64,000 nucleotides of DNA from Bacteroidota bacterium (GCA_947478465.1 CANJWH010000001.1:27447-91446), one strand, 5' to 3'; shown: positions 4,511-31,653, counted from the first letter of the stretch. Numbers and translations are program-made. Notes: generated by a model not told the origin, from the letters alone.

Positions 4511-4545
4511 AAAACAAGAACCAACGGTTGGTTGGTTCTTGTTTT
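4511..4545 (+). terminator. Perfect 15-bp stem / 5-nt loop hairpin followed by T-run between atpE and atpF (intra-operon attenuator or partial terminator)
   Basis: aaaacaagaaccaac-ggttg-gttggttcttgtttt then ttaaccc, read directly from the sequence. Confidence 0.55.
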
Positions 4546-4546
4546 T

Positions 4547-4575
4547 AACCCTTCGACTAAGCTCAGGGTGACAAT
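4547..4575. repeat. Dispersed repeat family B copy (ACCCTTCGACTAAGCTCAGGGTGACAAT)
   Basis: Near-identical 28-mer recurs at 27127-27154. Confidence 0.55.
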
Positions 4576-4609
4576 GATTAAACAATTGAAACAAAAAATA
4601 TAAAACAAA

Positions 4610-5104
4610 ATGGAATTAGTAAAACCGGCATTCGGACTTATCTTTTGGATGTTCGTTTCATTTGCGCTCATCCTTTTCCTGCTGAAAAAATTTGCATGGA
4701 AACCAATTCTTGAAATGCTGGATGAACGTGAAAAAACAATTTCTGATGCGCTGAACTCAGCACAAAAAGCAAAAGAAGAAATGACTGCGCTGCGAGCGGG
4801 TAACGAAAAACTTTTGCAGGAAGCACGCAACGAAAGAGACAACCTTTTGAAAGAAGCGCGTGAAGCAAAAGAAATGATCATTAACGAAGCCAAAACAAAA
4901 GCAACGGAGGCATCGGATAAAATCCTTGCTTCGGCACGTGAGAATATCAGCAACGAGAAAATGGCAGCTATTACCGAGTTGAAAAACTACGTAGCTACTT
5001 TGAGTATTGAGATTGCTGAGAAAGTATTGAAACAGGAACTTGCTGACCCTAACAAACAGAAAGAACTTGTTCAGACTTTATTGAAAGATACCAAAATGAA
5101 CTAA
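4610..5104 (+). CDS. atpF: F0F1 ATP synthase subunit b
   Basis: 164 aa. Single N-terminal TM then long charged coiled coil; position within the atp operon. Confidence 0.85.
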   Translation: MELVKPAFGLIFWMFVSFALILFLLKKFAWKPILEMLDEREKTISDALNSAQKAKEEMTALRAGNEKLLQEARNERDNLLKEAREAKEMIINEAKTKATEASDKILASARENISNEKMAAITELKNYVATLSIEIAEKVLKQELADPNKQKELVQTLLKDTKMN

Positions 5105-24054: not shown

Positions 24055-24146
24055 CATCAACGAATAACGTATCTTTTACGAATATACGAATGAAGTCTGC
24101 CGAAGGGCATTCGTTAATTCGTATTTTTCATTCGTTATTCGTTGAT
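24055..24146. repeat. Palindromic element of repeat family C: four ACGAAT hexamers on the left arm, four ATTCGT hexamers on the right arm
   Basis: atcaacgaataacg…acgaatatacgaat … attcgttaattcgt…attcgttattcgttgat. The outer 14-mers are perfectly complementary. Confidence 0.55.
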
Positions 24147-24153
24147 ACAATTC

Positions 24154-24161
24154 TATCTTTG
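24154..24161 (+). promoter_or_regulatory. Candidate -7 box TATCTTTG for lepA (near-leaderless)
   Basis: CTATCTTTGCGCCCC 15-mer, identical to the one before mnmG. ATG lies 10 nt downstream. Confidence 0.4.
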
Positions 24162-24171
24162 CGCCCCGAAA

Positions 24172-25980
24172 ATGAAAAACATCCGCAATTTCTGCATCAT
24201 AGCCCATATTGACCACGGCAAAAGCACGCTGGCCGACCGTCTGCTTGAATTTACCAACACCATTAACAAGCGCGATATGCAGGCGCAGGTGCTTGACGAC
24301 ATGGACCTGGAGCGCGAGCGCGGCATCACCATTAAGAGCCACGCGATACAAATGCAATACACGTATCGTGGGGAAAAACCTGAATATAAAGGGCAGTCGT
24401 TTACGCTGAACCTGATTGATACTCCCGGACACGTTGATTTTTCATACGAAGTTTCGCGCTCACTGGCTGCCTGCGAAGGCGCTCTTTTATTGGTTGATGC
24501 CTCACAAGGTATCCAGGCGCAGACTATCAGCAACATGTACCTGGCGCTGAACAACGATCTGGAAATTATTCCCGTGTTGAATAAAATTGACTTGCCGAGC
24601 GCCAACCCTGAGGAAGTAAAATTTCAGGTGGTGGATTTATTGGGTTGCAAACGCGAGGAGATTATGGTAGCATCGGGCAAAACCGGTGATGGAGTTTTTG
24701 AAATTCTGGACGCTGTTATTGAGCGCATCCCGCATCCCAAGGGCGACCCGAAAGCTCCTTTGCAGGCGCTGATTTTTGATTCGGTTTTCAATTCTTTCCG
24801 CGGAATTATTGCTTACATCCGTGTGTTTAACGGCACGCTGAAAAAAGGCGACCTTGTAAAATTTGCTGCTACTGATCACCAGTATAATGCTGACGAAACA
24901 GGTGTTTTAAAATTAACTCCCGAGCCTAAAAACACATTGGGGCCGGGCGAAGTAGGCTATATTATTTCCGGTATAAAAAAGGCAAGTGAGGTAAAAGTGG
25001 GCGACACGGTTACCCATGTTGACCGCCCCTGCGAAAAAACAATTCAGGGTTTTGAAGATGTGAAGCCAATGGTGTTTGCGGGTATTTATCCCGTTGATAC
25101 CGATGACTACGAAGAGCTGCGCGACAGCATGGAAAAACTGCAACTCAATGATGCTTCGCTTACGTGGGAGCCCGAGAGCAGTGCCGCACTGGGCTTTGGT
25201 TTCCGTTGCGGATTTTTGGGTATGCTGCACATGGAAATTATTCAGGAGCGGTTGGAGCGCGAGTTTAATATGACGGTGATTACCACCGTTCCCAACGTAT
25301 CGTACCATTCGTTTAACACCAAAATGGTGAAGACGGTGTTACGCAATCCCAGCGAGTTTCCCGACCCTTCAAAATTAGATCACGTTGAGGAGCCTTACAT
25401 TCTTGCAACCATTATTACCAAGAGCGAATACATTGGCGCTATCATGGGCCTGTGCATGGAAAAGCGCGGCATTCTCAAGAACCAAACGTATCTGACTACC
25501 GACCGTGTTGAGTTGATTTTTGAACTTCCACTGGCGGAAATAGTTTTTGATTTTTACGATAAACTGAAAAGTATTTCGCGCGGTTATGCCTCGTTTGATT
25601 ATAACCCATTAGACTACCGCGAATCGGATTTGGTGAAGCTGGATATTTTATTGAATGGCGAGCAGGTGGATGCGCTATCGGCTTTAATTCACAGAAGTAA
25701 AGCACACGAATTCGGACGCAAAATTTGCGAGAAACTGAAAGAGCTTATTCCAAAACAGCAATTCCAGATTGCGATACAGGCGGGTATTGGTGCAAAAATT
25801 GTTGCCCGCGAAACCATTTCGGCTTTACGTAAAGACGTTACTGCCAAGTGTTATGGTGGTGATATTTCGCGTAAACGCAAACTGTTGGAAAAACAGAAAG
25901 AAGGTAAAAAACGTATGCGTCAGGTAGGCTCGGTTGAGATACCACAGAGTGCGTTTATGGCGGTACTGAAGCTGGATTAG
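24172..25980 (+). CDS. lepA: Translation elongation factor 4
   Basis: [23 protein letters not shown]-domain and LepA-specific C-terminus. The track ORF start at 24142 is trimmed to the conserved MKNIRNF. Confidence 0.95.
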
Positions 25981-25988
25981 TTTTTTTC

Positions 25989-26006
25989 ACCACTAAGGGC
26001 ACTAAG
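25989..26006. repeat. Dispersed repeat family A copy (ACCACTAAGGGCAC(A/T)AG)
   Basis: The same 17-mer occurs at 27026-27042 and 39315-39331, with inverted copies at 39359-39375 and a degenerate one at 42122-42150. Confidence 0.5.
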
Positions 26007-26089
26007 TTTTATTTTTTCTGATTTTAATCATTCTCCCGTTTTTTAAGGTGTTGCACCTTTGCGGTGTTTTATAACACAAAGCACACTTT

Positions 26090-27013
26090 ATGAAAAAAAT
26101 ATTTGCATTTATTGTTATTGCGGCTGCTCTGGTTAGTTGCAAAAAAGAGAAAAGCGGAAACATGAATTTTTCCATGCACTACACCACCTCGCCCGATGTG
26201 TTTAAAACTGAAGTTGTGCCCGATAGTTTATACACCGGTTTTGGTGATTACATAACCAGTGTAACTCCCTCCCATTTCTCTGGAAAATTCAGGATGCTGG
26301 GCTTTCAGGATGCTGTTAGTCCGATAGACCAAAACACGAATATGCTGCTGTTTATTGATGGCAGTATGTCGAATGATGACCCCGCACGTATTGCCGATTT
26401 TTCAAACAACGCGGTGGTTAGTTATTCACCAAATATCCAGGGCCTTCAGGATAACGATGGCCTGTTTAGGGCTGAGCAGATAAACTTTATTTATTTTTAT
26501 TTTGATGCCTATTATTTTTATCAGGAGGTTGCCTTGCCTGCGCAATATGATACTGTAACCATTGCTATGTTTAACCGCAGCTATGGCAATGGCAACTTTA
26601 ATTACCGCAGCGATTCGGTTAAGGTTAACAACATACTTAAGGTAGATTATTACCCGCTTATCAGCAATGTGTTTAATGACGAAAACTACTGGCCTCAGTC
26701 TTATGTTTTTGGTAATTGCGATTCAACTTTTCTTTTTAATACCGAGCGTAATAATGTACCCAATTCGGCTAACTGGCCCTTTGGAGGCTATACCCATGAA
26801 TCAATAATCCGCAGCAATAACTATAACATGGCAACGGTAAACACTCCTACCGAAGGCGAAACGGTTAACATGACATCAACCGTTGGTTTTGATACCCAAA
26901 ACCTGATTCAGATTTATGCCGGTGCCGATAACATCCCTTACAACAGTGATGATGTGTTTGTTTATGCGCCCAATTTTTGGGAACGGATACAGGCTAATCT
27001 GGTGGTGGAATAG
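26090..27013 (+). CDS. Hypothetical lipoprotein
   Basis: 307 aa. Lipobox …ALVSC at residues 15-18; no recognised domain. Confidence 0.55.
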   Translation: MKKIFAFIVIAAALVSCKKEKSGNMNFSMHYTTSPDVFKTEVVPDSLYTGFGDYITSVTPSHFSGKFRMLGFQDAVSPIDQNTNMLLFIDGSMSNDDPARIADFSNNAVVSYSPNIQGLQDNDGLFRAEQINFIYFYFDAYYFYQEVALPAQYDTVTIAMFNRSYGNGNFNYRSDSVKVNNILKVDYYPLISNVFNDENYWPQSYVFGNCDSTFLFNTERNNVPNSANWPFGGYTHESIIRSNNYNMATVNTPTEGETVNMTSTVGFDTQNLIQIYAGADNIPYNSDDVFVYAPNFWERIQANLVVE

Positions 27014-27025
27014 GGTTTATATTTT

Positions 27026-27042
27026 ACCACTAAGGGCACAAG
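27026..27042. repeat. Repeat family A copy
   Basis: ttaccactaagggcacaagaacac, immediately after the lipoprotein stop. Confidence 0.5.
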
Positions 27043-27126
27043 AACACTAAGGTTTTTTACCTCAAAGGCGCTAAGATTTTAAATCCTCTGTGTAACTCTT
27101 TATCTTCTCTGTGCCCTCTGTGTTAA

Positions 27127-27154
27127 AACCCTTCGACTATGCTCAGGGTGACAA
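27127..27154. repeat. Repeat family B copy (ACCCTTCGACTATGCTCAGGGTGACAAT)
   Basis: 27 of 28 identical to 4547-4575. Confidence 0.55.
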
Positions 27155-27159
27155 TCTTC

Positions 27160-27504
27160 TTACTTCCCAATCTTCTCCCAATACTTATCCCGCTCCTCTC
27201 CTACCCTTTTCAGTTCTTTTTTCAGGGCTTCAATTTCTTTAAGCAATTCTTTTTCGCGGGCGGTGGGGCGCACGTGTTCGGGTAATAATTCAAGGTAATA
27301 TTCAAACAGATTTTCGCCCAAAAAATCGCTGAGGGCAAGCAGTACTGAGGGGCGCACATCGCGGGTGCGCAGGTTGCTGTGCAAATAATTCGAACTTTTT
27401 TTCAGCTTCCGGCTTATAGCGTTAAGCGATGTGCCTTTGTATTTTGCCCAGTTGCGGGCTATTGCAGGCATATCTGGCAATTCTTTTTTGGTTTTTAGCG
27501 GCAT
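27160..27504 (-). CDS. Small HTH (XRE-like) DNA-binding protein with C-terminal coiled coil
   Basis: 114 aa. GTSLNAISRKLKKSSNYLHSNLR resembles an XRE-type helix-turn-helix. The ATG sits 11 bp from the first iteron. Confidence 0.5.
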   Translation of the reverse strand: MPLKTKKELPDMPAIARNWAKYKGTSLNAISRKLKKSSNYLHSNLRTRDVRPSVLLALSDFLGENLFEYYLELLPEHVRPTAREKELLKEIEALKKELKRVGEERDKYWEKIGK

Positions 27505-27514
27505 GATTTATAAA

Positions 27515-27672
27515 TTGTAATGAGCGGTAAAGAAATTGTAACGGGCGGTAGCATTTTTGTAACGGACGGTATAAAATTTATAACGGGTGGTATATAAACA
27601 ATAACGCAGGAACGAGAAATTGCAACATGGAGTTGAGATAGTGTAAAGCATGTTCAATCTATTGTAACATTG
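27515..27672. repeat. 21-bp phased direct-repeat (iteron/operator-like) array, consensus TTGTAACGGGCGGTA
   Basis: Good copies at 27515, 27536, 27557 and 27578 (spacing exactly 21 bp). Degenerate copies at 27599, 27620 and 27662. Confidence 0.65.
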
Positions 27673-27676
27673 CCTT

Positions 27677-27714
27677 AAAAAAGCCCTTTGCAACTATGTG
27701 CAAAGGGCTTTTTA
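27677..27714. terminator. Bidirectional intrinsic terminator (perfect 16-bp stem)
   Basis: aaaaaagccctttgca-actatg-tgcaaagggcttttt, A-run and T-run on opposite sides. Located 3' of the 311-aa gene. Confidence 0.7.
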
Positions 27715-27720
27715 GTGTGT

Positions 27721-28656
27721 TTAACCTATGGTAACTTTATAAGTGCCGGGTGTGCCGGTGGGGTTTTGCACCACCAGTTCGTTACCTGCCGGTGCCATAG
27801 CGCCAAAGGTAGTTTCCAGCGGGGTGCCGGGCATTACGTTTACCCATCCGCCTTGTATCATTCCGCTTATGGCTAAAGCAAACTGCAGTTGCGTACCCGA
27901 TACTTCAAATTTAACGGGAGTAGCTGCATTGTAGGTTATTTCGGCTACCTTTTTTTGTGCTCCGGGGTTTACACCTTCTTCATACACATCGCCTCCTCCC
28001 CCGCTTGGGTTATCGTCAATGGCGCGGGCCAGCTGATATTCTTCCCACAGCGCAACGGTGGCGGCATTGTTGCGATAGCTGTTCACATATCCGTCAAGTT
28101 TTTCAAGCAGTTTGCGGCTTTCGGCAATGCCGCGATCAACATCATTGCCGGCAACGGTTTTGGCTTCAATGGCATCTTTAACTTCGGGTATGGCGGTGAA
28201 GTAAGTAATGGTTAGTGCAGGCAGGTCGGCAATATCGCTTGCGGCAACATTATAGCCCGGCAGCGCAGCAAGCACAACGGGTGTAAGGTAGGTGTTAAGG
28301 TACTGAGCCTTTTGCTGCAATTCGGTATCCTGCATTTTTTTAAGGTCGCTTTTGGTATAATTTACCTTGTTTGCAAGTGTGTTGTTATTATTGTCTTCGG
28401 CATAAGAGTGTATACCGTTAGCTACATTATACATAACGGTTTCAAGCGCCTGACGGGTTTGCTGCTTGTCTTCGGCAACACCCGTAGTGTTTTCGGTGGC
28501 GCGGCCTGCGGCTTCAATAATAATTTGGATTTGTGCATCTAAAAGCGCTTTGGTTGGCGCAATTTGCATGTGGCTTGAGTAAGCCGCTGCATTGTCTTCA
28601 AGGTTGTCTTGCACCTTGAGCAGCATGTTTAAAAATGCTTGCTGTGTGTCATTCAT
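27721..28656 (-). CDS. Hypothetical protein (311 aa): helical N-terminal region, Gly linker, beta-rich C-terminal domain; no recognised family
   Basis: Clean ORF with its own terminator. No signal peptide or TM; SGGGGD linker near residue 225. Confidence 0.55.
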   Translation of the reverse strand: MNDTQQAFLNMLLKVQDNLEDNAAAYSSHMQIAPTKALLDAQIQIIIEAAGRATENTTGVAEDKQQTRQALETVMYNVANGIHSYAEDNNNNTLANKVNYTKSDLKKMQDTELQQKAQYLNTYLTPVVLAALPGYNVAASDIADLPALTITYFTAIPEVKDAIEAKTVAGNDVDRGIAESRKLLEKLDGYVNSYRNNAATVALWEEYQLARAIDDNPSGGGGDVYEEGVNPGAQKKVAEITYNAATPVKFEVSGTQLQFALAISGMIQGGWVNVMPGTPLETTFGAMAPAGNELVVQNPTGTPGTYKVTIG

Positions 28657-28674
28657 AAGATGAGGTTTTTGGGG

Positions 28675-29025
28675 TTAGTTTTCTGGTTTGTTTAGTTGAT
28701 TGGTATTAGAAAGTTTAATTTTAATTTCTTCAAGATCAGACAAGACTTGCTTCATAAATTGATCAGAAAAAACAATCCTGGTCTCTGCTACAACATTCAG
28801 CGGGTTTTCGGATTCAAAAACCGTTTTTTTCGAATCTGGAAAATCAATCGAAAAATCATGTCTGATGATGTTACCTATGCGTTCTATCATTTCTTCAGGC
28901 GGGTTGTGGGTTGCAAGCAGGCGGTCAAAAGTCTTTTTATCAATTTTCAACTTCTTGTAAATAAATGCCTTTGACACACCAAATTCTTCTATTCTTTCCC
29001 TGATTATTTTTCCGCGGTGTTCCAT
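28675..29025 (-). CDS. HTH XRE-like transcriptional regulator (116 aa)
   Basis: IRERIEEFGVSKAFIYKKLKIDKKTFDRLL is a helix-turn-helix signature near the N-terminus. Confidence 0.55.
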   Translation of the reverse strand: MEHRGKIIRERIEEFGVSKAFIYKKLKIDKKTFDRLLATHNPPEEMIERIGNIIRHDFSIDFPDSKKTVFESENPLNVVAETRIVFSDQFMKQVLSDLEEIKIKLSNTNQLNKPEN

Positions 29026-29086
29026 TTTCGGAACAAAAATACCGCAGCACCTTAGGCTTTATTGAACACCGGGCAGGCGAAAGTGA

Positions 29087-29131
29087 CCCATTAATGGGGA
29101 GCGTGAGAAGAAAAAATACCCCTTTATGGGG
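29087..29131. promoter_or_regulatory. Two operator-like sites CCCATTAATGGGGA / CCCCTTTATGGGGA 31 bp apart upstream of the HTH gene
   Basis: The first is a perfect 12-bp palindrome (cccattaatggg). Both sit in the 5' region of the minus-strand gene that ends at 29025. Confidence 0.35.
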
Positions 29132-29203
29132 AATTGAGAAAAAGGCCGGTGCTGTTGAGGCAATTAGCGCTACGGCAAAAAAACCGATATTTGCCCACCA
29201 ACA

Positions 29204-29238
29204 TTCGTATATTCGTAATTCATTCGTTATTCGTTGAT
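29204..29238. repeat. Half-element of repeat family C (four ATTCGT hexamers) overlapping the ybeY start
   Basis: attcgt-at-attcgt-aattc-attcgt-t-attcgt-tgat has the same architecture as the right arm of 24055-24146. Confidence 0.45.
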
Positions 29239-29671
29239 GATAAACTTCTTCACCCAAGACATAAAATTTACCCTGAAGAACAAAACAAAAGTTCGTCAGT
29301 GGCTAACCACCGTTGCCAAAAAAGAAGGCGCCCAAATAGCCGAACTCAACTACATTTTTTGCAGTGATAATTACCTGCTGGATCTGAACAAAAAACATTT
29401 GAACCATAACACACTTACCGATATAATTACGTTCGATACGGCTGTCACTTCGAGCGTAGTCGAGAAGCAAATAACCGGAGACATTTTTATAAGCATTGAA
29501 AGAATAACCGAAAACGCAGAAAAATTCAATGTTTCACGTGAGTACGAGCTGCACCGTGTAATGGTACACGGCCTGCTTCACCTCCTCGGCTACAAAGACA
29601 AAAAACCTGCAGATAAAGCCCAGATGACGGGCAAAGAAGATTTTTATTTAAAGAAAGTCCATAGTCGATAG
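29234..29671 (+). CDS. ybeY: rRNA maturation endoribonuclease YbeY
   Basis: 145 aa. HGLLHLLGYKD zinc-binding H-x-H motif. Confidence 0.85.
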   Translation: MMINFFTQDIKFTLKNKTKVRQWLTTVAKKEGAQIAELNYIFCSDNYLLDLNKKHLNHNTLTDIITFDTAVTSSVVEKQITGDIFISIERITENAEKFNVSREYELHRVMVHGLLHLLGYKDKKPADKAQMTGKEDFYLKKVHSR

Positions 29672-29754: not shown

Positions 29755-31653
29755 ATGTTCGAAAAATACGATGTAATTGTAGTAGGTGCCGGCCACGCAG
29801 GATGCGAGGCTGCTGCTGCTGCTGCCAATCTGGGCAGTAAAACATTGCTCATTACCATGAACATGGCAACCATTGCACAAATGAGTTGCAACCCTGCCAT
29901 GGGCGGCATTGCCAAAGGACAAATAGTGCGCGAAATTGATGCTCTGGGTGGCTACTCAGGAATAGTAAGTGATAAGTCGGCCATTCAGTTTAAAATGCTG
30001 AATAAATCAAAAGGGCCCGCCATGTGGAGTCCACGCACGCAGAATGATAGAATGATGTTTGCGGCAGAATGGCGCAACATGCTGGAACAAACCAAAAACC
30101 TTGATTTCTGGCAAGACATGGTAAGCGCGCTTATCATCGAAAACGGGAAACTTTGCGGAGTACGCACCTCTATGGGAATTGAATTTCGTTGCAAGGCAGT
30201 AGTGCTTACCAACGGAACTTTCCTGAATGGAGTAATACATATCGGTGAAAAGAATTTCGGTGGAGGAAGATCTGCTGAAAAAGCCTCAACCGGTATTACT
30301 GAACAATTAGTTCAACTCGGTTTTGAAAGCGGAAGAATGAAAACCGGAACTCCTCCCCGTCTCGATGGTCGCTCTCTGGATTACTCCAAAATGACCGAAC
30401 AACCCGGTGACGAAAACCCCTCTAAATTTTCATTTTCAGAAGGTACAAGCCCGTTTATTACACAAAACGGACAAGAGCCCAAGAAACAGATTTCGTGTCA
30501 TTTAACGTACACAAATGATGAGGTTCACGACCTGCTCAGAACCGGCTTTGATAAATCGCCTATGTTCTCAGGTCGCATACAAGGCATAGGACCACGCTAC
30601 TGCCCTTCCATTGAAGATAAAATAGACCGTTTTGCAGATAAAGAACGCCACCAGCTCTTTGTAGAACCCGAAGGATGGAACACTGTAGAGGTTTACATCA
30701 ACGGATTCAGCACTTCTCTGCCTGAAGATGTTCAGTATAAGGCACTTAAGAAGGTTACAGGCTTCGAAAACGTGAAAATGTTCCGCCCGGGCTATGCAAT
30801 AGAGTACGATTACTTCCCACCTCAGCAATTACACCTTACTTTAGAAACAAAGCTGGTAGAAAACCTCTACTTCGCAGGACAAATAAACGGCACAACCGGA
30901 TACGAAGAAGCGGCATGTCAAGGCATGATGGCGGGTATAAATGCGCACCGTAAAATAAATGAAGAAACAGCCTTTATTTTAAAACGATCTGAAGCATATA
31001 TCGGTGTCTTAATTGATGACCTTGTAACCAAGGGAACCGATGAACCTTATCGCATGTTTACCTCACGTGCTGAGTATCGTATCCTTCTTCGCCAGGATAA
31101 TGCTGATATGAGACTTACTCCTCTTGCCTACGAATTAGGTCTGGTAAATAAAGAACGTCTGGATAAGGTAAACGATAAATACGAGAAAGCACAACAGGTA
31201 ATTAACTATTTCAAAAAAGAAAGTGTAAGCCCTGATGTTATAAATCCTGTTTTGGAAAATGCGGGTTCAAGCCCTATCGACCAAAAAGTAAAACTATTTG
31301 GCATCATGGCTCGTCCCGGAATTAACTTCCCGGATTTATATAAAGGAATTCCTGATTTAAAAGAATACATGGATACTACCTTTGACAATAACCAGGAGAT
31401 TTCAGAGCAGGCAGAAATACTCATGAAGTATGAAGGCTATATAGAAAAAGAACAGGAAATGGCCAATAAACTAAACCGCCTTGAAGACACAATCCTTCAT
31501 GATAATTTTAACTTCGGTGTGCTTAAATCTCTGTCCATTGAAGCCCGTCAAAAGCTAACCAAAATTAAACCCAGAACACTCGGTCAGGCATCTCGTATAA
31601 GTGGGGTATCACCCTCCGACATATCTGTTCTGATGATACATCTTGGAAGATAA
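29755..31653 (+). CDS. mnmG: tRNA uridine-5-carboxymethylaminomethyl modification enzyme MnmG (GidA)
   Basis: 632 aa. N-terminal [19 protein letters not shown] fold and full-length GidA similarity. Confidence 0.95.

Follow-up and report, generated by a model that had tools for sequence, protein, structure and literature searches.

What separates lepA from ybeY in this Bacteroidota bacterium, and is it a recent arrival or a resident of the chromosome? The window, a 64,000-nt stretch of Bacteroidota bacterium DNA, carries between these genes three minus-strand open reading frames (ORFs) of 116, 311, and 114 amino acids, here called geneA, geneB, and geneC (geneB and its homologues are also referred to as B), together with a hairpin terminator, an array of 21-bp repeats, and a short 3' tail. 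Each of the three genes is present as a single copy within the window. In our assessment, with somewhat better than an even chance of being right, the segment 27076-29239 is one allele of a widespread and undescribed Bacteroidota cassette, a cooperative multi-operator switch over a modular effector that probably has a role in conflict.

A preliminary description of this DNA had placed the three genes, the terminator, and the array where the ORF list and the sequence itself put them, and the unit that it outlined (helix-turn-helix (HTH), orphan, HTH, with dense regulatory DNA) is a real and conserved module. Neither the three proteins nor the lipoprotein encoded next to lepA gave a significant match in Pfam, NCBIfam, PHROGs, or PADLOC (PADLOC-DB v2), the best PADLOC score among the four being E = 0.039, for the lipoprotein. 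The 311-aa protein is thus without a recognisable family, as had been stated, and the wider claim that no known system matches is borne out by the family libraries, by 50 members of the B family, and by a profile search of Protein Data Bank (PDB) sequences.

B proteins and their phased repeat arrays

The AlphaFold model of geneB, based on a 23-sequence alignment, is confident (predicted local distance difference test (pLDDT) score 85.4), and consists of an elongated N-terminal helical bundle, a disordered glycine-rich linker, and a C-terminal jelly-roll domain. The protein is acidic (isoelectric point (pI) 4.6) and cytosolic, with no signal peptide, transmembrane segment, or Walker A motif, and its structural matches are generic bundles and jelly-rolls. 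When the geneB alignment profile was run against 1.84 billion cluster representatives, 5676 were retrieved at E <= 1e-3, 3703 at <= 1e-10, and 263 at <= 1e-30. The top 150 members are mostly ~310 residues long; some comprise the N-domain only (~215-230 aa), and a few carry other C-terminal domains (PKD/LRR, CarboxypepD_reg-like). Pfam searches with 10 and then 50 diverse members, and PHROGs searches with 50, revealed no common family, none of 50 members has a Walker A motif, and the geneB profile found no match among PDB sequences. With thousands of clusters and no Pfam, NCBIfam, or PHROG model, the B family is large and unannotated. Its most conserved part is the N-terminal ~20 residues, which are kept across 21-87% identity. 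The geneA/geneB junction with the first geneB codons (28639-28703, CCTCATCTTATGAATGAC...) is also one of only two DNA patches that can be aligned with the related locus L004 (L numbers designate the loci of relatives, P numbers B homologues).

B and its conserved N-terminal domain found no tblastn match in 72,556 plasmids (PLSDB) and 50,697 phages (INPHARED), and a scan of IMG/VR with B was likewise empty. The sole phage or plasmid match came from the C-terminal LRR domain of a distant member, P0165, which matched two records of uncultured phages. The phage-repressor-like or abortive-infection-like origin suggested in the preliminary description consequently has no direct support from PHROGs, PADLOC, phage, plasmid, or IMG/VR matches.

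Laid out as 21-nt rows anchored on the geneC ATG, the array is composed of ~8 phased direct units with the core GTTACAAT and the gene-strand consensus nnncgTTAcAatttnTnnAcC. The 21-bp repeats of what had been described as an iteron array are present, but their extent is corrected to the whole gap from just after the terminator to the geneC ATG. Tandem Repeats Finder reports 3.7 copies of the 21-bp unit at 27515-27592, corresponding to the four units closest to geneC, which are the best conserved. The strongest autocorrelation of the window array is at period 21 (0.46 vs a shuffle maximum of 0.37), and period 21 gave the top autocorrelation, exceeding every shuffle, in all 14 loci tested. The GC content is 0.345 in the array and 0.395 on average in the window, a difference that is not decisive for an origin-type unwinding element. 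Nearly every lineage has its own repeat sequence, most retaining a TTTC or TTTG sub-motif, and the period is constant at 21 or 42 bp, which corresponds to two or four helical turns of DNA. That the spacing stays at two B-DNA turns whatever the sequence argues for a constraint at the DNA level. Overlapping sigma-70-like matches inside the array (GTTACA-17-TACAAT, 27514-27563, minus strand) were set aside as probably incidental, because they are made by the repeat core, Bacteroidetes promoters differ, and other alleles do not have the pattern. The hairpin between geneB and the array has a counterpart behind geneB in all related loci, and its sequence changes from one locus to the next.

The association of these parts holds well beyond the window. 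An array with a period of 21 or 42 bp lies beside B in 19 of the 19 distinct loci examined, the B homologues ranging from 21 to 87% identity, and an HTH gene is adjacent to B in 18 of them. The order B-terminator-array-HTH is found in the window and in L001, L004, L008, L010, L012, L014, L019, L021, L023, and L030. In L007, L026, L027, and L031 the array is followed by the HTH gene (in the intermediate relatives L007, L026, and L027 a geneC homologue) and B, in L033 and L038 HTH and B are divergent with the array between them, L035 has the order HTH-array-B, and in L036 array and B occur without a neighbouring HTH gene. Five of these loci, with B members at ~20-25% identity, represent distant contexts. 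In L031, ~15 x 21 bp precede a HTH_26 protein and B, near a giant protein of the type IX secretion system and nuoK-N. In L033, ~10 x 21 bp separate B from a divergent HTH_26 gene amid housekeeping genes, and in L038, 12 x 21 bp separate B from a divergent HTH-plus-coiled-coil gene, with ribosomal protein genes nearby. L035 has a HTH_3/31 gene, two 42-bp-period arrays, and B between the genes for an SBBP/DUF7948 protein and a cation-efflux protein, and in L036 the 21-bp array and B are located beside an MmeI-like methyltransferase. The L036 array (4522-5004) has been called as a 160-aa ORF with 7-residue SADWSLT repeats. In public annotations, other arrays of this type probably lie concealed in spurious ORFs, mis-called as repeat-containing proteins.

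As for the HTH partner, geneC is basic (pI 9.7), and its AlphaFold model (pLDDT 77.5) shows a five-helix, lambda-repressor-like XRE domain with a helix-turn-helix (helix 2, residues 27-33; helix 3, residues 40-44), followed by a long, 32-residue C-terminal helix (residues 82-113) that is coiled-coil-like. The description of the 114-aa protein as HTH agrees with this fold, and the antitoxins HigA and HipB are among the best structural matches. At the sequence level, the window geneC has no Pfam HTH match, and a profile search of PDB sequences gave weak coiled-coil and SinR matches only. The cut-off is exceeded by the geneC homologue in L027 for HTH_3 (27.5 bits vs 23) and by the HTH partners of L033 and L031 for HTH_26, and the L004 homologue has a weak HTH_3 mark. 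The start of the 114-aa geneC abuts the array; among population variants, an identical geneC is called as 103 aa (from an internal ATG) or as 114 aa (L015, L018 vs L016, L017).

Variability across the geneC family, taken in 15-residue windows, peaks at residues 28-50, i.e., helix 2-turn-helix 3. In a partial Mantel test on 14 loci, array similarity correlated with HTH identity when the rest of the protein was controlled for (r = 0.33, p = 0.0012), and the reverse control gave r = -0.06 (p = 0.68). Individual pairs behave in the same way. For L012 and L019, whose geneC proteins are 80% identical, neither the recognition helix nor the array differs, and for L014 and L023 (79%) nearly identical helices go with related arrays, whereas the helix differs, and the arrays differ, between the window and L010 (84%), the window and L021 (81%), and L008 and L012 (80%). 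Between the window and L010, geneC is 65% identical within the HTH vs 90% outside it. The same geneA occurs with different arrays in the window and L014, as does the same geneB in the window and L010, which indicates that neither of these two sets the array specificity. Judged by its XRE fold and by this co-variation, geneC is likely to be the array-binding protein.

The remaining gene, geneA, lies 18 bp upstream of geneB in the same orientation. Its product is probably an HTH protein, with a short coiled-coil region towards the C terminus. Highly divergent variants in relatives can be aligned with it colinearly; they have the C-terminal coiled coil in common and share a motif, (H/W/Y)DF-x-x-(D/E)-(F/I) (consensus HDFSIDFP), with D57 and F58 as the only invariant residues. 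The window protein has no Pfam HTH match, and the variants of L010 and L012 match HTH_3 (20.6 bits) and HTH_26 (17.9 bits) under the curated Pfam cut-off, which lends weak support to the earlier assignment of the 116-aa protein as XRE-like. No homology between geneA and geneC is detectable with hhalign. Upstream of geneA, a candidate -7 box of the Bacteroidetes type (TATTTTTG) is preceded by two 13-bp palindromes, CCCATTAATGGGG and CCCCTTTATGGGG, which are 32 bp apart and are candidate operators for geneA. The control region, including the palindromes, is conserved in L014, which has the same geneA type.

Mosaic alleles at a fixed chromosomal slot

A word-indexed homology search among 5.8 billion proteins identified 34 relatives of geneB, 18 of geneC, and 3 of geneA, all in metagenome assemblies of Bacteroidia. 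The geneA and geneB relatives have no functional annotation, and two geneC relatives carry generic regulator labels. A homologous module is located directly beside ybeY in five independent relatives (L004, L010, L014, L030, and the population variants L015-L018), in a common surrounding order of S46 peptidase, methyltransferase, mnmG, and ybeY. The GC content of the module genes, overall and at third codon positions, is inside the range of the flanking genes, geneA alone being on the low side (GC 0.35), and composition analysis gave no signal of foreign DNA. Five relatives share the ybeY-side module and the composition is unremarkable, so the module did not enter this genome recently. The idea of an accessory-looking insertion is therefore retained in part. 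The module is accessory-like in being hypervariable and mosaic between genomes with 85-91% identical flanks, and in being present in other chromosomal contexts, but recent insertion does not apply. The preliminary description would have yielded to related genomes that universally carried the same genes here with ordinary functions. The same genes do occur here in relatives, but these are without annotated function and extremely divergent, which favours the reading as an unusual module.

The flanks of L004 are 84-91% identical to the window in DNA sequence (blastn), but the match stops at window position 29240 and resumes at 27075, and in between only two short patches align, 28703-28639 and 27350-27175. 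The corresponding protein identities are 35% for geneB, 53% for geneC, and 30% for geneA. Other relatives differ from the window in other parts of the module. In L010, geneB and geneC have 86% and 82% DNA identity, which is the level of the flanks, and geneA and the entire terminator-array spacer are without DNA similarity to the window. In L014, identity to the window is 79% from the region upstream of geneA through geneA itself to two-thirds of the way into geneB, and the similarity stops at window position 27987, exactly at the glycine linker of geneB; geneC of L014 is ~43% identical to that of the window. Across these relatives, geneA has been swapped independently of geneB and geneC. A comparison of 23 geneB homologues showed discordant identities of the two B domains: P0028 and P0030 are 96% identical in the N-domain and 47% in the C-domain, P0023 and P0024 are 53% and 94% identical, respectively, and the window protein and P0006 79% and 39%.

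The ybeY side of lepA is not the only site that houses these modules. Homologous modules are found between ligA and prmC in L001, L008, and L009, and elsewhere on the chromosome in L007 and L027. The metagenome-assembled genome Bin_39 (JAJVIC01) has two cassettes, one at ligA-prmC (L011, which equals L001) and one at ybeY-lepA (L014), with the array cores ATGAAGTAA and TTCTCTACCC, respectively, and geneC proteins that are 45% identical. In different relatives, both slots also collect PIN, HigBA, ParE, and NTase/HEPN pairs (toxin-antitoxin pairs at L004 9182-9765; L030 3279-3889 and 4436-4973; L001 8528-9215; L008 3964-4516), and they look like hotspots of integration or recombination. The module is a resident of a recombination-prone slot, in which parts are exchanged between strains.

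A proposed switch and its alternatives

In the mechanism that we propose, three invariant parts would act together: the B protein, the phased array, and the XRE-type HTH protein. B has a conserved ~215-aa N-terminal helical bundle joined by the glycine linker to an exchangeable C-terminal beta-sandwich, and the array ~8-15 direct repeats of lineage-specific sequence with a period that is always 21 bp (or 42 bp). The HTH part is, in the window, geneC with its C-terminal coiled-coil helix. Probably oligomeric through this helix, geneC would occupy one site per 21-bp unit on a single face of the DNA, and neighbouring molecules would bind cooperatively to form an extended nucleoprotein complex that covers the promoter and 5' end of geneC itself. 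In the array-HTH-B and HTH/array/B arrangements, which are commoner, the promoter of B would be covered too, resulting in a steep on/off switch. The window clade appears permuted, such that B would be co-transcribed with geneA from a promoter on the ybeY side and end at the strong terminator, with the array and geneC following; geneA and geneC may interact via their coiled coils. The specificity between protein and array would be private to each allele and diversify fast, and the units exchanged would be geneA, the B N-domain, the B C-domain, and the array together with the geneC recognition helix. Exchange of parts between strains at a fixed slot suggests diversifying selection. The most likely function of B is in conflict, either phage defence or exclusion, or antagonism or recognition between strains via the variable binding domain, given the conserved N-terminus, the exchangeable binding-type C-domain, the private specificities, the coexistence of paralogous cassettes, and allele replacement.

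Several observations weigh against this proposal. B matches no known defence or toxin family, and many B loci have purely housekeeping surroundings, for which reason the conflict role is weakly grounded. Because B precedes the array in the window, this particular locus is the one in which geneC is least clearly in control of B. The case for DNA binding by geneC consists of its fold and the co-variation, and the co-variation test comprises 14 related loci in which the cassette parts are linked, so that shared ancestry may inflate the result. Furthermore, L036 combines array and B without an adjacent HTH gene, and the distant contexts are five hand-picked loci of 5676 clusters.

The array and its presumed binder could also be thought of as a centromere- or iteron-like maintenance module, plasmid-like remnant or still active, with the array as partition site or iterons, geneC as the binder, and B as a filament or adaptor. 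Partition systems of types Ib (omega/ParG), II (ParR-parC of R1 and pSK41), and III (TubR-tubC) are characterised by tandem direct repeats that adjoin the gene of their small DNA-binding protein and act as centromere and operator alike (PMC5016525). The cassette resembles these in form only: the array overlaps the presumed promoter of geneC and would double as operator, and the specificity differs between co-resident cassettes (L011 vs L014), as would be required to avoid incompatibility. The two-turn spacing is iteron-like, and the gene order looks circularly permuted between clades. However, a partition NTPase (nucleoside triphosphatase) is missing, with no ParA, ParM, or TubZ matches in Pfam or NCBIfam for any module protein and no Walker A motif in 50 members, and so is a plasmid or phage replicon, the LRR-domain match of P0165 being all that tblastn returned. 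The binder is of XRE type with a coiled coil instead of ribbon-helix-helix (ParR, omega) or winged-helix (TubR), the repeat period is 21 bp vs 7-12 or 20 bp, and the partner of the binder is a helical-bundle and beta-sandwich protein. Plasmid origins of the iteron type have Rep-bound iterons of 17-22 bp, ~two helical turns apart. The cassette shares with them 4-10 or more direct ~21-bp repeats on one DNA face with a sequence that diverges between relatives, but it has no Rep initiator (no Rep-type family in geneA, geneB, or geneC in Pfam, NCBIfam, or PHROGs), its array abuts a start codon where iterons abut an unwinding element, no integrase or excision gene is nearby, and every locus lies on a chromosomal contig amid housekeeping genes. 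A maintenance module is for these reasons quite unlikely. Phage immunity regions provide another comparison, with CI/Cro-type XRE repressors at multiple adjacent operators and, in lambda cI-rexAB, a repressor co-transcribed with an exclusion gene. The XRE fold, adjacent sites ~two turns apart that permit cooperativity, co-varying regulator and operator specificities, and mosaic alleles are all found in the cassette, and where the order is array-HTH-B, regulator and accessory protein share an orientation, as do cI and rexA. The cassettes, however, have 8-15 sites, formed by uniform direct repeats, instead of 3; their neighbourhood is free of phage genes, and B has no PHROG, phage-database, or IMG/VR match. 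SinR-type regulators are similar to geneC in having an XRE HTH domain followed by a helical multimerisation region, and geneA and geneC, as two paralogue-like HTH/coiled-coil proteins, could heteromerise as in a SinR-type switch, but there is no significant sequence similarity to SinR, which targets a few sites and not long phased arrays, and geneA and geneC are not detectably homologous to each other.

A toxin-antitoxin-like or abortive-infection addiction module, in which the HTH protein (geneA here, the geneC homologue elsewhere) would be antitoxin and repressor, B the toxin, and the array a long operator, fits several features of the loci. An HTH gene is directly upstream of B, with a gap of 18 bp in the window and ~80-105 bp in L007, L027, and L031, and the cassettes are small, solitary, highly variable, sometimes multicopy, and scattered in intergenic slots amid housekeeping genes in the manner of HigBA and HipBA, whose antitoxins are structural neighbours of geneC; classical pairs (PIN, HigBA, ParE, HEPN/NTase) gather in the same slots. 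We nevertheless regard it as improbable. B resembles no toxin family and has no PADLOC match, it is large and acidic with an exchangeable binding-type C-domain, an operator of 8-15 phased sites, far longer than theirs, is foreign to toxin-antitoxin systems, and the gene order is variable, with HTH divergent from B or 0.5-0.7 kb of array between them in several loci. A similarly low probability is assigned to an ordinary lineage-specific regulator with a structural or stress protein, the hypervariability of which would be due to relaxed constraint and local recombination. Stable occupation of the slot in all five relatives, normal composition, housekeeping surroundings with no mobile or defence markers, and a strong terminator that suggests a well-expressed gene all agree with this explanation. 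Relaxed constraint, on the other hand, leaves unexplained the strict 21-bp period, the conservation of the N-terminal 20 residues of B at 21-87% identity, the concentration of substitutions in the recognition helix, the clean domain swaps at the linker, and 35% identity within 90%-identical flanks. A transcribed repeat element that acts on B as RNA, like ToxI of type III toxin-antitoxin systems, is highly improbable and was rejected. Array, terminator, and an uncharacterised protein gene are indeed parts of the ToxIN type, although the window order is different (B, terminator, array), and the 42-bp units of some relatives approach ToxI-like lengths. In most loci, however, the unit is 21 nt; shuffled versions of the array fold better than the array itself on either strand (z = +1.1), and Rfam gave no hit for it. 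The two-turn period is independent of sequence, pointing to DNA, the array co-varies with the HTH recognition helix, and its position and orientation relative to B vary. Each known class, i.e., partition, iteron, phage immunity, toxin-antitoxin, and ToxIN, fails on a defining feature.

The cooperative switch over B is thus the explanation we prefer, and literature searches for Bacteroidota XRE regulators associated with 21-bp repeat arrays turned up no relevant paper. A more far-reaching proposal, about which we are rather doubtful, is that the B family, the 21-bp array, and the co-evolving XRE regulator constitute a new and widespread class of Bacteroidota system, in which a private "lock" formed by an HTH polymer on the array gates a modular sensor/effector, and in which lock and effector domains are shuffled at fixed chromosomal slots in an anti-phage or inter-strain arms race; alternatively, the nucleoprotein complex could be a scaffold that recruits B to a DNA site. 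Placing the system outside the known kinds is provisional, because a regulator with its operator is conventional in principle. If the three-part association holds throughout the family, a large piece of the "dark matter" of Bacteroidota would be defined, with a legible regulatory grammar in which the period is strictly kept while repeat sequence and recognition helix change together. The cassettes could be used to study co-evolution of protein-DNA specificity and as a source of orthogonal repressor/operator pairs for synthetic biology in Bacteroidota, and, as a candidate conflict or recognition system, they may reveal a target through the variable C-terminal domain.

Elements flanking the module

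Table 1. Positions of the module and neighbouring features in the window
Feature	Position	Strand	Basis or remark
lepA	24142-25980	+	ORF list
Lipoprotein-like 307-aa ORF, signal MKKIFAFIVIAAALVSC	26090-27013	+	ORF list
Whole cassette (geneA, geneB, terminator, array, geneC, short 3' tail)	27076-29239	-	blastn vs L004
REP-like family B element CCCTTCGACTATGCTCAGGGTGAC, directly after geneC stop	27129-27152	+	second copy 4549-4572
geneC, 114 aa	27160-27504	-	ORF list
21-bp repeat array	27505-27672	-	
Hairpin terminator after geneB, 15-pair symmetric hairpin between A and T runs	27678-27713	-	predicted intrinsic
geneB, 311 aa	27721-28656	-	ORF list
geneB C-terminal jelly-roll, eight-strand beta-sandwich (aa 224-311)	27721-27987	-	
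geneB Gly-rich linker, disordered, NPSGGGG (aa 216-223)	27988-28011	-	
geneB N-terminal elongated helical bundle (aa 1-215)	28012-28656	-	
geneA, 116 aa	28675-29025	-	ORF list
geneA-geneB control region	29026-29140	-	promoter/operator roles inferred
Candidate Bacteroidetes-type -7 box TATTTTTG	29034-29041	-	
13-bp palindrome CCCATTAATGGGG	29087-29099		candidate geneA operator
13-bp palindrome CCCCTTTATGGGG	29119-29131		candidate geneA operator
ybeY	29234-29671	+	Pfam YbeY E=7e-28
mnmG	29755-31653	+	

The 307-aa ORF between lepA and the module is an orphan with the lipobox LVSC and no family match. It had been counted with the module, but its product is 92% identical in L004, where the module has diverged (module proteins 30-53%, geneB 35%), and we therefore assign it to the flanks; it was not found in L010 or L014.

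Dispersed repeats had been taken to delimit a 3.2-kb insertion, which we reject, since they are ordinary intergenic elements of this lineage that recur elsewhere in the window. The family A element ACCACTAAGGGCAC has exact copies at 25989, 27026, 39315 (+), and 39362 (-), four where 0.23 would be expected; the latter two form an inverted pair, and the former two bracket the lipoprotein gene alone. Elements of the type CACTAAGG, similar to ACCACTAAGGGCAC, are present in the intergenic DNA of relatives (L004 ~8055, L010 ~5440). The family B element also follows the geneC stop directly in L001 (7590-7618) and aligns partially in L014, but it is probably not specific to the cassette; with a copy at an unrelated site in the window as well, it is a dispersed element with a tendency to settle at the ends of genes. 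Short ATTCGT(A/T)-type repeats, tandem or dispersed, occur just upstream of ybeY (29204-29234) and between an aldehyde dehydrogenase gene and lepA (24060-24142), and other 7-bp tandem repeats are found at gene junctions of relatives (AGTCCAT and GACTATG in L014, GAGATTT in L010).

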